Source: Escherichia phage vB_EcoM_G2285
Sequence record: MK327933.1
Length of the DNA: 64,000 nt
Direction: 5' to 3' (one strand)
In this document: piece by piece, positions 1 to 5,340 of the stretch
Numbering within the stretch: position 1 is the stretch's first letter
Layout of the letters: each line of letters opens with the position of its first letter
Notes under the pieces: model-generated
The model's input: the letters and a program-made list of their open reading frames with translations, nothing else
Databases searched by the model: none
Told to the model about the DNA's origin: nothing
Made by a program: the position numbers and the translations under genes

Positions 1-127
1 CTTTAACAACAGGTCCAGAACCGCGGTAAATATCGTTTTGATTAGACTCATCACACTTATGAACACCTACATAAATTTTACCATTAACGACATTAGTAAT
101 TTGGTAAACAGTATAAACAGTTTTCAT
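1..127 (-). CDS. GIY-YIG homing endonuclease, N-terminal part (gene runs off the window start)
   Basis: ATG at 125-127 with GGAGG 6 nt upstream; own translation MKTVYTVYQITNVVNGKIYVGVHKCDESNQNDIYRGSGPVVK shows the GIY-x10-YVG plus RGS pattern of GIY-YIG nucleases; frame stays open to position 1. Confidence 0.6.
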   Translation of the reverse strand, partial: MKTVYTVYQITNVVNGKIYVGVHKCDESNQNDIYRGSGPVVK

Positions 128-149
128 AATATCCTCCATTAGTTGATAA

Positions 150-183
150 GACTATAATACCACATCCTTGTGGTATTGTAAAC
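150..183 (-). promoter_or_regulatory. Early-type sigma70-like promoter with palindromic spacer, upstream of the GIY-YIG ORF
   Basis: Minus strand reads GTTTAC - 18 nt containing perfect hairpin ATACCACA-AGGA-TGTGGTAT (157-176) - TATTAT; the -35 overlaps the stop of the gene 43 fragment. Confidence 0.45.
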
Positions 184-1703
184 TATTTTGAAGCCAAAAT
201 CTCTTTAATTATTTCAGCATTTCGCTGTGCAGCCAACATGTAGCGCTTATGTTCTTTACGCTGCAAGAATACCTTAGTGATTTCTGTTGGAATCACACCA
301 TCACGGTCTTTATAATACATCATGCCGTTAGGAGAGCAACTGTACACATCTGAAGGACGTTCGGCGATTGCGTTAATATACTCATGCAGTGGAGCTACTT
401 TAAACGTTCCTGCTATTGTTTCCGGGCTAATATTCACTTGGCGAATAATACTTGGATACAGAGATGTAAGGTCGAAACTCATTACATATTTGTATCGATT
501 TGGAATAGGTTCCTTAACAAAAGCGCCAGGATAAGGTTGAACCGGGTGAGAACGACCTTGTGGAATCACCTTGTTCTGCTCTTTAAGGCTATTAAAAATA
601 ATAGCATCCCATGTTTTAATTGGGCTAAACACAGATTGAATCTGTATCTTAGCATAATAACCCATGTCCAAGCTCAAGTTGATGAACTGACGCTTAGCAT
701 CAATTTGCAATACACGATACACGTCGATAATGTTATAAGAAATATATCGTTGGTGATTGCTTTCACGAAGCTTAGAAATAGGGCCGTCATATTTCAGTTT
801 ACCAACGTTCAATTCAAATTCTGAAATGTAATCCAGAGAATATGACGGTTGATTGGTAAAAGAGAATTTTTTGTAAAGGTCAATGTAATCAAGAACAGAG
901 ATACCGAACAATGTAATGATTTCACGAGAACCATACATGTTTTCGATAACTTTAACACGAGTTTTACGATGTGGTGACAACCGTTTTGCTGTGGATTCGC
1001 CAAAAATATTCTTGATTCGGTTATACACATATGGAATATCAAATGACTCAACGTTCCATCCAGTCAAAATGACAGGAGTTTTCTGTTGCCAGAAGTTGAG
1101 ATATTCCATCAACAATTCTTTTTCGTTATCGAACGGCATATAAATGATTTTATCGATAATTTCAGATGGAACTTCATCACCGCCTTGTTCTTGAAGCTTA
1201 GCAGCGATTTCAATAGACCATTCTTCTACATTACCATACGGAGAATTCAATAGATCAAATACATAGAACCTGTCGTCAATTGAGTCATAATGGGTGATAG
1301 CATCAATCGGATGTTTTGCTTGTGACGGCTCAGGGAACCCATCCGGAGATGTTACTTCGATGTCGAAGTTAGCCACACGAATTTTTGTATGGTCGTATTT
1401 GATTTCATAGTTATAAGTGTCAGACAAATACGCCAATTTGAAATCGTCCATGCCAAGTGCTTCAAGTCCGATATCTTCCATGCGTTTAATCCATTGGGAG
1501 GCATCACGCATATTAGCGAACAGCTTACGAGTACACGGCTTACCGTAGATATCGAAATATTTCGTAGCCTGACTTTCTGGACAATGAGCAAACAGTGATG
1601 GTTTATATTCTACTTCACGAGTACGTTCACGGCCATTAGAATCGATGTAACGTTCAAAAATTGAATCACCAATCTGTTCAACCGTTAAGTAAAATTCTTT
1701 CAT
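183..1703 (-). CDS. 43: DNA polymerase gp43, N-terminal 506 aa fragment (exonuclease domain through motif A); terminates prematurely
   Basis: ORF begins MKEFYLTVEQIGDSIFERYIDSNGRERTREV, contains exo motifs (FDIEV, ESFDIPYVY, NIIDVYRV) and polymerase motif A (SFDLTSLYPSII); intact T4/RB69 gp43 is about 900 aa, here a stop follows ...AEIIKEILASK. Confidence 0.9.
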   Translation of the reverse strand: MKEFYLTVEQIGDSIFERYIDSNGRERTREVEYKPSLFAHCPESQATKYFDIYGKPCTRKLFANMRDASQWIKRMEDIGLEALGMDDFKLAYLSDTYNYEIKYDHTKIRVANFDIEVTSPDGFPEPSQAKHPIDAITHYDSIDDRFYVFDLLNSPYGNVEEWSIEIAAKLQEQGGDEVPSEIIDKIIYMPFDNEKELLMEYLNFWQQKTPVILTGWNVESFDIPYVYNRIKNIFGESTAKRLSPHRKTRVKVIENMYGSREIITLFGISVLDYIDLYKKFSFTNQPSYSLDYISEFELNVGKLKYDGPISKLRESNHQRYISYNIIDVYRVLQIDAKRQFINLSLDMGYYAKIQIQSVFSPIKTWDAIIFNSLKEQNKVIPQGRSHPVQPYPGAFVKEPIPNRYKYVMSFDLTSLYPSIIRQVNISPETIAGTFKVAPLHEYINAIAERPSDVYSCSPNGMMYYKDRDGVIPTEITKVFLQRKEHKRYMLAAQRNAEIIKEILASK

Positions 1704-1744: not shown

Positions 1745-1785
1745 GAACTTATTATACTCCAAATGGGACCGAAGTCCCATTGCTT
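1745..1785 (-). promoter_or_regulatory. Promoter region of gene 43 with UUCG-tetraloop hairpin
   Basis: Minus strand -10 TATAAT (plus 1751-1756); hairpin TGGGAC-TTCG-GTCCCA (1764-1779) directly after the regA stop. Confidence 0.4.
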
Positions 1786-3758: not shown

Positions 3759-4445
3759 TTAGAAGTCGTGAGTAGAATCGGCTTCCATCGCAATAACATA
3801 ACTTACTTGAGAGCTTTCAAACTTAGCTGCAACTTTATCACCAGCTCCCCACAACATTACTTTATAGTTACCTGGCTGGATTTTCATATTAGCCATATTG
3901 ATTACGAAGTTAAAGTTGTTAGAACCATCATAATCGGTAAGAGTCAAAGAATACTTAGGACGAGTTAGTCCGGAATCTTCAACTTTATTATAGCCATTGA
4001 TAACAATTTTACCATCTTTATTTGTAATAGCAATTGTATCAATCTGAAGACCACGTGAAACTCGAAGCAATTGTTGAAGGTCTTCGGCTTTAATTTCAGT
4101 AATCACAGAAGCCACTGGGAATTGAATTGGCTTATTAGGAAAAACAATGGTGCTCTTGTCAGCGGCAGGCCAATAAACTGTGGAACGTGTATCTGCAATT
4201 TTAATATTACCATCAGTGTGCATTGAAATTTCAGCATCGTCAGACACTAGACTCAAAATGCTTAAGAAGCTATTCAAATCATAAAGTGCTACGTCAAAAT
4301 CAATTTCATCAGAGATATTTGCTTCCGCATAAGTGGTGCCATTAACTGCACGAGTCATAATAAATTTACCTTGACTCAGCAGAATGCCAGAGTTAATAGA
4401 AGCGAAGTTTTTCAGAATATTTACGGTTTCACGGCTAAGTTTCAT
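3759..4445 (-). CDS. 45: Sliding clamp gp45
   Basis: 228 aa, begins MKLSRETVNILKNFASINSGILL; length and position between 44 and rpbA match gp45. Confidence 0.85.
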   Translation of the reverse strand: MKLSRETVNILKNFASINSGILLSQGKFIMTRAVNGTTYAEANISDEIDFDVALYDLNSFLSILSLVSDDAEISMHTDGNIKIADTRSTVYWPAADKSTIVFPNKPIQFPVASVITEIKAEDLQQLLRVSRGLQIDTIAITNKDGKIVINGYNKVEDSGLTRPKYSLTLTDYDGSNNFNFVINMANMKIQPGNYKVMLWGAGDKVAAKFESSQVSYVIAMEADSTHDF

Positions 4446-4804
4446 TTAGGTTTCCTATTAGCATAATAATTTGTCCAAGACCGGATAGCACCTTGGTATG
4501 ATTCATCATTAAAACCATGCTGAATTGCATGTTTTCTAAATGTAATATAACTTGGTTTTCCTAAAGCAATCCACAATTCCTTTAATTTTTGTTCATGAAA
4601 TATCCATGTACCTCTAGCTTTAGATTTTCTGAATTTATCCTTAAATTCTTTGGTTGCATTTCTTTTCGAAGCTGCGATAGAGGCCTTTGCTCTATTTTCA
4701 GGTTTAGACCAATACAATGTTTTAGATATTTTTATTTTATCTTTAACATTAGGAGAATTCATTATATCTTTAAATTTTAAAGCAAAATCTCTATCGCTAA
4801 ACAT
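4442..4804 (-). CDS. Basic 120 aa protein overlapping the 3' end of the upstream GIY-YIG-like ORF; possible DNA-binding module or separate small gene
   Basis: ATG at 4802-4804 lies inside the last 28 nt of ORF 4777-5340 in another frame; lysine/arginine rich; ATGA overlap with gene 45 start. Confidence 0.4.
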   Translation of the reverse strand: MFSDRDFALKFKDIMNSPNVKDKIKISKTLYWSKPENRAKASIAASKRNATKEFKDKFRKSKARGTWIFHEQKLKELWIALGKPSYITFRKHAIQHGFNDESYQGAIRSWTNYYANRKPK

Positions 4805-5340
4805 TTTTTAGAACGAATAGAAACTTTCTCTCTTCGTTCTTTGGTCCAATATGTTTTTTGAAATTCTCTAATTGCGTTTAAATGATTCTCCGACAATTTG
4901 CAATTTTTTCTAACACCGACGTAATCTTCATTTATTTCGTTTTTAGAAAGTTTTACTATTTTGCCTGTTTTTAAATTTTTATACGGTGCGTATCCTTTAG
5001 CTGATATTCTAGACTTCTCGTTAGCATAAGCCTTATTAAAATATTTTTCATTTGAAACGGCTTTAACATTGAGTTGGAATAGTCTTTCTATTCTTCTAGG
5101 GTCTAATGTGGTTTCGCCTAAAATTTTTACAGAATATTCGCCTTGGTCTATTAATCTGTTATATAAAGGAGAATACGAGGAATTAACACTACCGGTATAT
5201 ATTTTACCGGTAGAATCTTCAATAATATCCTTTCCATTAAAATGACACGAAACTTTAGAACCTATATAATAACACGGGTATTCATTTTTAATCTCACGAT
5301 TATAAAAGGTTATAAGATATATTAAATTCATAATTATCAA
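4777..5340 (-). CDS. Seg-like GIY-YIG endonuclease (catalytic domain), inserted between rpbA and 45
   Basis: 187 aa; N-terminus NLIYLITFYNREIKNEYPCYYIGSKVSCHF resembles the GIY...YIG motif; ATGA overlap with the rpbA stop. Confidence 0.5.
   Translation of the reverse strand: MIIMNLIYLITFYNREIKNEYPCYYIGSKVSCHFNGKDIIEDSTGKIYTGSVNSSYSPLYNRLIDQGEYSVKILGETTLDPRRIERLFQLNVKAVSNEKYFNKAYANEKSRISAKGYAPYKNLKTGKIVKLSKNEINEDYVGVRKNCKLSENHLNAIREFQKTYWTKERREKVSIRSKKCLAIEILL

Follow-up and report, generated by a model that had tools for sequence, protein, structure and literature searches.

A DNA polymerase gene in two pieces is already known from phages of Aeromonas salmonicida: 25, 44RR, 31 and phiAS4 all carry a split gene 43 (Petrov et al. 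2006, 2010; summarised in PMC2988022, PMC2993671 and PMC3061061). As these summaries give it, the layout runs from 43A through an IC-UTS and the GIY-YIG endonuclease gene seg43(25) to 43B, the last with a HEG-less group I intron (PMC2988022, PMC2993671, PMC3061061). According to the account in PMC2988022, citing Petrov 2010, 43A and 43B of phages 25 and 44RR are separate proteins which co-purify and are polymerase-active. Split fingertips are tolerated both in T4-like gp43 and in Pfu polymerase (PMC3061061), and PeSL-like sequences have been described between 43A and 43B of 44RR and 25 (PMC2839356). RB69 is listed as a phage without endonuclease genes (PMC2993671).

The DNA analysed here is a 64,000-nucleotide stretch from Escherichia phage vB_EcoM_G2285 (MK327933.1), hereafter the window, and its first 1,703 nucleotides hold a gene 43 of the RB69 type. 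In RB69 itself, gene 43 has the textbook single-cistron form with an uninterrupted fingertip, and its product, gp43, serves as the principal model for the structure and kinetics of replicative polymerases of family B. We favor, with a probability of roughly 0.8, the reading that the gene in the window encodes a bicistronic, split-fingertip polymerase (43A / endonuclease / 43B), brought about in an RB69-type phage by a mobile cassette. An arrangement already described for Aeromonas phages is here extended to the genus Mosigvirus.

The polymerase reading frame and its breakpoint

The first cistron (Table 1) begins with ATG, ends with a TAG at 185-183 and encodes 506 amino acids. The initial annotation took it for the N-terminal half of the polymerase, and the reading frame, tblastn and phmmer all bear this out. 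In tblastn it was 98.6% identical to RB69 gp43 over residues 1-503, the same residues over which phmmer matched it to the RB69 polymerase chains in the PDB (1CLQ, 1IG9 and others, 903 aa); Pfam DNA_pol_B_exo1 and DNA_pol_B were both found. Over residues 1-501 the identity is 98.8%, with 6 substitutions, and the frame then runs into a foreign ILASK and the stop. The cistron encodes the N-terminal and 3'-5' exonuclease domains, the beginning of the palm including motif A (DLTSLYPS, D at 411), and the first finger helix. Alignment to intact RB69 gp43 maps the break after E501, at the fingertip start of the fingers domain, where it separates the first finger helix from the second and lies past motif A but short of motif B. 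From the break (501 of 903), intact gp43 runs on for another 402 residues, in agreement with the earlier estimate of about 400; motif B (K560 in RB69) and motif C (YGDTDS, 619-624; D621/D623) belong to this part, which 43A lacks. The expectation that a split would set motif A apart from motifs B and C was correct. Indeed, every element described in that annotation is present, if in some cases a few bases from where it had been placed.

Table 1. Features at the start of the window, in window coordinates
Feature	Coordinates	Strand	Basis or description
Putative Seg-like GIY-YIG homing endonuclease gene, 5' end (42 codons)	1..127	-	Translation, PHROG, tblastn; runs off window
Shine-Dalgarno GGAGG	133..137	-	5 nt upstream of endonuclease ATG
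Predicted sigma-70/T4-early-type promoter	154..183	-	10/12 consensus matches, TG present
Predicted hairpin in promoter spacer, 9-bp stem, 4-nt loop	156..177	-	AAUACCACA-AGGA-UGUGGUAUU
Gene 43A, N-terminal cistron of putatively split PolB DNA polymerase	183..1703	-	ORF, RB69 gp43 match, Pfam
Foreign C-terminal tail ILASK of gp43A	186..200	-	Homologous to ILASRG... tail of Aeromonas-phage gp43A
Co-conversion-like tract directly upstream of break	217..294	-	19 substitutions absent from all 5 Mosigvirus references (~20% divergence)

At the nucleotide level, homology to all Mosigvirus records ends after window 201 (...ATTAAAGAG | ATTTTGGC...; nucleotide search). The final ~95 nt before this point are ~20% diverged from all Mosigvirus, compared with 0.8% upstream, and there are 19 private substitutions in 100 nt near the break as against 11 in 1403 nt (Fisher p = 2.4e-16). 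The protein differs from RB69 at 6 positions, all of them within residues 441-496; the changes in the divergent tract include V471I, N480L, G487R and G496A. Identity of the tract to RB69 is 81% and to Dhakavirus FB 85%; for the 400 nt upstream of it, the values are 97% and 81%. From these identities, it looks like a co-conversion tract from a Tevenvirinae-like donor.

Beyond the break, the tail points to the Aeromonas phages. The break codon is identical in phiAS4, phage 25, 44RR, Aes012 and the L008 contig, with ...IKE|ILASK* here against ...IKK|ILASRGxKxxH* there, and the tail nucleotides read ATTTTGGCTTC here and ATTCTGGCTTC in Aeromonas phages. Compared over 12 nt, or 4 aa, ATTTTGGCTTCA agrees with ATTCTGGCTTCT of phage 25, Aes012 and L008 at 10 of 12 positions and with GCATTGCATAAT of RB69 at 5 of 12. 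Judging from this resemblance, the ILASK tail marks the left edge of a putative imported cassette, with GAANNAATTAARRARATTYTGGCTTC as a signature. The insertion is polymorphic in presence and absence: it occurs in 0 of ~175 Mosigvirus records, none of which extends past window 201. The split arrangement appears to have been imported by recombination.

Relatives of the junction were sought widely. Among 50,697 phage records no hit crosses window 201 (megablast and blastn), an exact-protein lookup found no identical gp43A on record, and E. coli RefSeq genomes held no relative of the junction. Neither the exact junction 44-mer nor the back-translated endonuclease motif was present in IMG/VR; a degenerate junction pattern, run against IMG/VR, JGI metagenomes and GTDB genomes, returned Aeromonas-type phages and chance matches only (L009, L010, L018-L020). 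When 43A and the C-terminal half of RB69 gp43 served as protein queries, no 43A of ~500 aa and no 43B of ~390 aa of the Tevenvirinae type (>70% identical) came up; the lists also contained no full-length Tevenvirinae gp43 and are not a census. Elsewhere in the 64,000-nt window, tblastn found neither 43B nor a second polB. Mosigvirus records mis-annotated "hypothetical protein (x2)" were considered as split candidates and rejected; their gp43 is intact, at 903 aa.

The promoter cassette and the endonuclease gene

The promoter abuts the polymerase gene so closely that the G of its -35 element (TTTACA/GTTTAC at 183-177) is the final base of the 43A stop codon. A 17-nt spacer separates this from a TG-extended -10, TATTAT at 159-154. 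The agreement with consensus, the hairpin and the homologues, at 1332 places in 803 T4-like phage records, uphold the GTTTAC / palindromic-spacer / TATTAT element that had been proposed at 150-183. The spacer hairpin is transcribed on read-through RNA from 43A only, and its region does not significantly exceed shuffled sequences in stability (z = -1.3 to -1.7). Within the window the 26-nt promoter core is unique, with 0 occurrences expected by chance. The promoter has a near-identical counterpart in the cassette between motB and cef of Klebsiella T4-like phages, and the endonuclease leader is conserved with the Klebsiella phage cef leader as far as ATGAAAACTG. On these homologies the predicted cassette belongs to a widespread T4-type early-promoter/stem-loop family. 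T4 middle promoters have a spacing requirement between MotA box and -10; by this measure, a middle-promoter reading of TGGCTTCA as a MotA box was dropped, its spacing to a -10 being too short by eye.

A subclass of PeSL in which the stem-loop lies between -35 and -10 has been described (PMC2839356). As in PeSLs, a sigma-70-like promoter is combined here with a stem-loop, in an intergenic position, in a unit repeated among T4-type genomes. The G/C-tract stem (GGGG...CCCC) of the RB49/phi1 PeSLs is absent, the stem here being formed by AAUACCACA and UGUGGUAUU.

Following the in-frame 43A stop, the endonuclease frame has translation signals of its own, an ATG at 127-125 and the GGAGG ribosome-binding site that had been noted before and was confirmed. 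It translates to MKTVYTVYQITNVVNGKIYVGVHKCDESNQNDIYRGSGPVVK. Of the GIY-x10-YVG signature claimed earlier, the endonuclease ORF running off the window stood, and the literal motif did not: the 42-aa fragment reads TVY-x10-YVG, not GIY. PHROG 314 "homing endonuclease" matches the fragment with an E of 5.6e-10, while the Pfam scores fall below the curated cut-offs (E 0.004-0.018; GIY-YIG 15.8 bits, cut-off 22.6; SegE 17.8, cut-off 25). The part that would encode the catalytic Arg/Glu and the DNA-binding domain lies past the window edge. By tblastn, hundreds of annotated Seg-like endonucleases share 55-60% identity with the fragment, among them that of the split phiAS4 gene 43; a search for its N-terminus among 5.8 billion proteins gave no candidate. 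The best tblastn matches were SegD-like genes beside pseT in the Morganella and Providencia phages inspected, and another was in ECO111 5-P, between unrelated genes. Because these best-matching genes are not in gene 43, the similarity of the endonuclease is generic.

The order of stop, hairpin, SD and ATG of the next cistron is common to 44RR, 25, Aes012 and L008. What occupies the slot differs: nothing in 44RR and Aes012, a GIY-YIG gene in 25 and phiAS4, and an HNH gene in L008 and L011. From this comparison, the fingertip slot appears to serve as a landing pad that can be empty or take up a GIY-YIG or an HNH endonuclease. A polymerase split by a freestanding endonuclease, one of the explanations put forward in the initial annotation, is well supported by the break codon, the ILAS tail and the stop-hairpin-SD-ATG layout shared with Aeromonas phages; the 43B that it calls for would lie past window position 1. 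That annotation mentioned neither the known precedent for the arrangement nor the trace of recombination in the flank.

Alternative explanations

It is unlikely, in our view, that the junction is an artefact or a dead end, that is, a chimeric assembly of a Mosigvirus with a second, unsampled T4-like phage, joined where their gene 43 sequences agree, or a truncated pseudogene in a defective genome. About 100 nt before the break, 97-99% Mosigvirus identity gives way to a divergent type, a switch that an assembler could make at a conserved stretch; the junction is without a confirming independent record, and two phages occurring together, if assembled as a chimera, would look the same in the window. 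However, homing with co-conversion is expected to leave short divergent tracts beside an endonuclease gene (PMC2988022). Moreover, a chimeric assembly would leave the biological conclusion standing, because its left part must then have been taken from a real phage whose Tevenvirinae-like gene 43 is split. It is implausible that an essential replicase would be a pseudogene; the frame is intact over 501 codons with only 6 substitutions, the stop falls exactly at the known permissive split site, and no second polB lies in the window.

A self-splicing group I intron that houses the endonuclease ORF, as the T4 td intron houses I-TevI, is still harder to credit. The ILASK and stop would then represent read-through, and the spliced mRNA would yield full gp43. 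In T4-type phages, GIY-YIG endonucleases do reside in group I introns that contain promoters and hairpins (PMC2988022), group I introns do occur in gene 43 of relatives, and most of one placed here would fall past the window edge. However, Rfam RF00028 gave no signal in window 1-600, even at E <= 10, whereas control gene-43 introns scored 69.4, 81.5 and 71.8 bits; nor did the Rfam search of window 1-600 return anything else meaningful. Every gene-43 intron that we found interrupts motif B (NSLYGA|L), and none the fingertip. The 5' splice site of a group I intron is expected to follow a U, but here the break follows a G (GAG|ATT). The ORF begins only ~75 nt past the break, and this interval is filled by a promoter cassette common to ordinary intergenic regions. 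The tail has its homologues in genes that are demonstrably bicistronic.

Inteins occur in PolB genes of archaea and some phages, and Pfam Intein_splicing (PF14890) matches some gp43 C-terminal relatives, but an intein removed from gp43 by protein splicing, which the initial annotation had also allowed for, is practically excluded by the in-frame TAG five codons past the break, by the endonuclease's own promoter, SD and ATG, by a first residue past the break of Ile rather than Cys or Ser, and by the GIY-YIG type of the enzyme.

Proposed origin and comparison with known split genes

Returning to the split polymerase, we propose that the window begins within a mobile cassette that turned the single-cistron gene 43 of a Mosigvirus into a split gene. 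The endonuclease would be transcribed from its own early promoter, and on read-through RNA from 43A the hairpin would form shortly before the SD. The enzyme would cut those gene 43 alleles of co-infecting relatives that have no endonuclease, and repair from endonuclease-bearing genomes would copy the cassette along with nearby markers, leaving a divergent tract. Past the window, after an endonuclease gene of ~250 aa, we expect a 43B cistron with an SD and ATG of its own. It would encode the second finger helix with motif B (K560), motif C (D621/D623) and the thumb, possibly with a HEG-less group I intron at motif B, as in phage 25. An active polymerase would then arise by non-covalent assembly of gp43A with gp43B.

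We speculate further, at slightly less than even odds, that the split state is itself horizontally transmissible. The cassette would move as a unit by endonuclease-driven conversion, making single-cistron polB genes two-subunit across genera, from Aeromonas-type phages into Tevenvirinae coliphages. Such a cassette would comprise the gp43A tail and stop, the hairpin/promoter spacer, the endonuclease slot and presumably the 43B leader. If this is true, it answers a question posed in a 2010 review, namely whether the split is the work of the endonuclease or was already there when the endonuclease arrived, and there exists a natural two-chain version of the RB69 polymerase. The conserved tail and the sharp divergent tract in an otherwise Mosigvirus gene are direct evidence, in the sequence itself, that recombination can bring in the genes-in-pieces state of gene 43; an origin of the split in situ is not what the flank shows. 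A two-chain variant so close to RB69 would also provide a ready-made natural system for the effects of split fingers on assembly, fidelity and nucleotide selection, and an engineered split of Pfu polymerase altered its substrate tolerance (PMC3061061). The known picture of homing endonucleases in T4-like phages is unchanged and is extended to a new genus.

Among known systems, the split gene 43 of Aeromonas phages shares with this locus the fingertip break codon, the ILAS tail, the sequence ATTYTGGCTTC and the stop-hairpin-SD-ATG layout; phage 25 and phiAS4 also have a Seg-like GIY-YIG endonuclease as the next gene, as is predicted here. In contrast to those phages, the host gene here is 98% RB69-type and belongs to a coliphage of the genus Mosigvirus, and the tail is shorter (ILASK versus ILASRGxKxxH). 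The spacer is an early-promoter cassette common to Klebsiella-phage intergenic regions, where theirs consists of G+C-rich hairpins. The endonuclease N-terminus is only ~59% identical to theirs, and the 43B/intron side lies here past the window edge. The PeSL cassettes of RB49/phi1 and their T-even analogues (Arbiol et al. 2010, PMC2839356) likewise place a stem-loop between the -35 and -10 of a sigma-70-like early promoter, and are intergenic, repeated and associated with gene shuffling. Compared with the RB49 PeSLs, the stem here is A+T-richer and without polyG/polyC tracts, resembling the T-even "analogues" of PMC2839356, and the promoter is a predicted one.

Providencia phage PSTCR6 (MW057858; annotated only) is also T4-like, with an Enterobacterales host, and has a 505-aa 43A with the same fingertip end (...LIKKAKHSHN*), then an endonuclease gene between the halves, then 43B. 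However, its tail is unrelated, its endonuclease is an HNH/NUMOD3-like ORF on the opposite strand, its 43B contains a group I intron (71.8 bits), and its 43A is only 66% identical to that of the window. Freestanding endonuclease genes inside essential enzyme genes are further represented by mobE in nrdA of Aeromonas phage Aeh1 and by mobA between T4 genes 39 and 60, where the two polypeptides reassemble into active enzyme (PMC2988022); these differ in host gene and in being HNH-type Mob rather than GIY-YIG Seg. The engineered split Pfu polymerase and the naturally split Methanothermobacter PolB (PMC3061061) are archaeal and involve no mobile element, and the latter is split in the palm. Like the polymerase proposed here, both belong to family B and are cut in or near the fingers or palm, and both are fully active as two chains.

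Gene 43A and the elements after its stop

The window comes from a Mosigvirus (RB69-like) genome: positions 1–2200 are 97.5–98% identical to about 175 Mosigvirus records, and the minus-strand order rpbA, 45, 44, 62, regA, 43 is likewise found in RB69. The initial annotation described a gp43 ORF stopping early past motif A, where intact gp43 continues for about 400 residues, followed by a promoter-like element, a GGAGG site and a GIY-YIG endonuclease ORF. Stop, cassette and endonuclease-like ORF were all seen, so this observation is confirmed, and the truncation and endonuclease feature are real. The 506-aa product of 43A, the N-terminal cistron, aligned without gaps to RB69 gp43 residues 1–501 with only six substitutions, and its residues 1–503 matched solved RB69 polymerase chains (903 aa). 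Homology runs through residue 501 and ends at the break, after window position 201; ILASK and TAG follow. Motif A (D411) is retained, and motif B (K560) and motif C (619–624) lie within the 402 residues lacking. No 43B, the expected C-terminal half, was found within the 64,000-nt window. The RB69 fingers domain spans approximately residues 469–572, so residue 501 would mark the end of the first finger helix and the start of the fingertip. Natural gp43 splits have been placed in the fingertip independently (PMC3061061).

Features of gene 43A and the downstream cassette
Feature	Position	Strand	Description
Gene 43A	183..1703	(-)	506-aa ORF ending ILASK + TAG
GTTTAC	183-178	(-)	Its G is the final base of the 43A stop codon
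Spacer	between GTTTAC and -10	(-)	17 nt, folds as a 9-bp hairpin
TG-TATTAT, -10 hexamer	159-154	(-)	TG-extended
GGAGG	137-133	(-)	After a short leader
Endonuclease ATG	127-125	(-)	Opens ORF; 42 codons inside the window, rest beyond the edge

The endonuclease ORF fragment matched the PHROG 314 homing endonuclease family (E 5.6e-10) and was 55–60% identical to hundreds of annotated Seg-like GIY-YIG endonucleases; Pfam matches were sub-threshold because the first motif pair alone is visible in the window.

Klebsiella T4-like phages have a sequence nearly identical to window 118–183 between motB and cef, the common stretch comprising -35, hairpin, -10, leader, SD and even the first codons (ATGAAAACTG). 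The cef leader of RB69 itself is built to the same design, though its sequence differs. A 75-nt cassette query found 1332 places in 803 T4-like phage records, and the cassette occurs once within the window. It fits the idea of PeSLs, mobile early-promoter/stem-loop cassettes of which one subclass has the stem-loop between -35 and -10 (Arbiol et al., PMC2839356), although its stem is A+T-richer than those of classical PeSLs; PeSL-like sequences between 43A and 43B were noted in 44RR and 25 (PMC2839356). Going by geometry alone, a transcript from the cassette promoter would omit the hairpin and read-through RNA from 43A would include it. A similar non-sequestering hairpin lies upstream of the seg43(25) SD (PMC2988022). 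The folding energy of the whole region was unexceptional (z = -1.3 to -1.7), and any RNA role of the hairpin is therefore conjecture.

Elsewhere in this region, window 978–993 (gene 43 nt 711–726) carries 5 substitutions in 16 nt, seen in 0/5 Mosigvirus references, amid near-identical surroundings; a micro-conversion tract is one possibility. A G+C-rich 8-bp hairpin (AATGGGACCGAAGTCCCATT) sits between regA and gene 43 (window 1762–1781); the terminator scan flag there falls on the opposite strand, and the hairpin may be a regA terminator or belong to the gene 43 leader. Two ORFs (187 and 120 aa) occupy window 4442–5340 (-), between gene 45 and rpbA, an insert that RB69 and mar005P1 lack and that 9 Mosigvirus records (AV111, AV116, JM17, FL18, FL31 and others) share at ~99% identity. 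The 187-aa ORF matches PHROG 7504 'homing endonuclease' (E 3e-17), and the insert looks like a second, predicted freestanding endonuclease, possibly broken into two ORFs.

A divergent tract beside the break

Window bases in none of five Mosigvirus gp43 genes (private bases) number 11 in gene nt 1–1403 versus 19 in nt 1404–1503 (Fisher p = 2.4e-16). The 19 span nt 1410–1487 (window 294–217), and over the final 16 nt up to the break the window does not differ from Mosigvirus. All amino-acid differences from RB69 (6/6) fall within residues 441–496. Identity of the tract to RB69 is 81%, against 85% to Dhakavirus FB, its best blastn lineage (86–87% across 98 aligned nt). In the 400 nt upstream the order is reversed, with 97% for RB69 and 81% for FB. 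Its first half is Dhakavirus-like (for example, VFLQRK), and its second half had no match in the collection. Homing yields co-conversion of flanking markers (mechanism reviewed in PMC2988022), and the tract has, at the sequence level, the pattern that such co-conversion would produce. The donor would be an unsampled Tevenvirinae-like phage, already split in gene 43.

All of the ~175 Mosigvirus alignments end at window 201, none crossing it, and the junction is covered by 0 of 50,697 phage records searched. Mosigvirus records with suspicious annotation have an intact gene (903 aa). The insertion is therefore a presence/absence polymorphism in the genus. No relative with the junction was found in phage records, IMG/VR, JGI metagenomes, GTDB genomes, E. 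coli RefSeq or protein collections, nor was the combination that the window shows in an RB69-type gene found elsewhere in the collections searched.

A chimeric assembly or a pseudogene is an improbable explanation. Were the assembly chimeric, a real Tevenvirinae-like phage with this split would still have to exist; against a pseudogene, which is implausible, stand the undamaged reading frame and a stop placed exactly at a permissive site. Less probable still is a group I intron carrying the endonuclease ORF, as the initial annotation had allowed: Rfam was empty in window 1–600, yet gene-43 introns were detected in 3/3 controls, all at motif B and none at the fingertip; the base preceding the break is G; and the 75 nt from break to ATG are an ordinary intergenic cassette. 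We keep a slight chance for the intron because its far side would fall outside the window. An intein is ruled out, since an in-frame stop closes 43A and the endonuclease has a start of its own.

Relation to split polymerases of other phages

The endonuclease fragment also matches the endonuclease in the 'split DNA polymerase' of Aeromonas phage phiAS4, a region consisting of 43A, a GIY-YIG endonuclease, a 57-aa 43B first exon, a group I intron (69 bits) and the remaining 43B. This is the arrangement known from phage 25, with seg43(25), IC-UTS, and 43A and 43B that co-purify and are active (passages of PMC2988022 citing Petrov, Ratnayaka and Karam 2010), and with intron 25.g43B (PMC2993671). 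In protein alignment, 43A homology ends at the same codon, after ...AAQRNAEIIKE in the window and ...AAIRNQEAIKK in phiAS4. A degenerate junction pattern search found phage 25 and two environmental Aeromonas-type contigs, and 44RR and Aes012 were added to the comparison. In all of these gp43A ends ...IKK-ILASRGxKxxH-stop, versus ...IKE-ILASK-stop in the window. The 12 nt after the break (ATTTTGGCTTCA) match ATTCTGGCTTCT of phage 25, Aes012 and contig L008 at 10/12 positions, versus 5/12 for RB69 (GCATTGCATAAT). Every lineage compared has a stop, a hairpin, and the SD and ATG of a next cistron. In 44RR and Aes012 this cistron is 43B itself; phages 25 and phiAS4 have a GIY-YIG gene there, and contigs L008 and L011 an HNH gene. 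With this common break codon, tail and layout, the window adds another occupant to a known slot, and the left edge of its insertion is, as judged from these alignments, homologous to the Aeromonas-type split. Together with the Seg-like ORF, they strongly support the freestanding-endonuclease alternative of the initial annotation, which is very probably correct.

In phiAS4 (4895–5022 of the extracted region), the annotated 43A is 524 aa, with a tail (NSGFQGRKG...) overlapping the endonuclease gene. Its AAGAAAA(A)TTCTGG has one A more than in phage 25 and L008, and the frame leaves the conserved ILASRG tail; the extra A probably reflects either a sequencing error in the homopolymer or a genuine frameshift.

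Proteins resembling 43A (~500 aa) and 43B (~390 aa) turn up commonly in phages of Acinetobacter, Aeromonas and Providencia and in metagenomes. Providencia phage PSTCR6 (MW057858, L026 5001–9407) has a 505-aa 43A, a 374-aa HNH/NUMOD3-like ORF on the opposite strand, and a 43B split into a 58-aa first exon, a group I intron (71.8 bits) and a second exon; its GenBank record labels 505-aa and 299-aa products both simply 'DNA polymerase'. In ENA contig NODE_737 (ERZ17989507), gene 43 is Tevenvirinae-like, has 85% identity to the window 43A and an unsplit fingertip, and carries a HEG-less group I intron (4909–5121; Rfam 81.5 bits) exactly at motif B (NSLYGAL/GNVWF), where the phage 25 intron also sits. 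Thus, among phages of enteric bacteria every component of the phage-25 system can be found. Several gp43 fragments are ~415 aa (among P0003, P0043–P0048, P0058/P0157), P0003 (76% identity) ending inside motif A (...SFDLTSL), and the Pectobacterium phage POP12 pair (427 and 488 aa) is of similar size; these suggest a third recurrent interruption site in gene 43.

RB69 polymerase is the model enzyme, hence the interest of a probable natural split in its gene, and the flank gives unusually clean evidence of a split state imported by recombination. A split-fingertip gp43 with a homing endonuclease is a known kind; new here are the genus, the endonuclease lineage and the spacer cassette.
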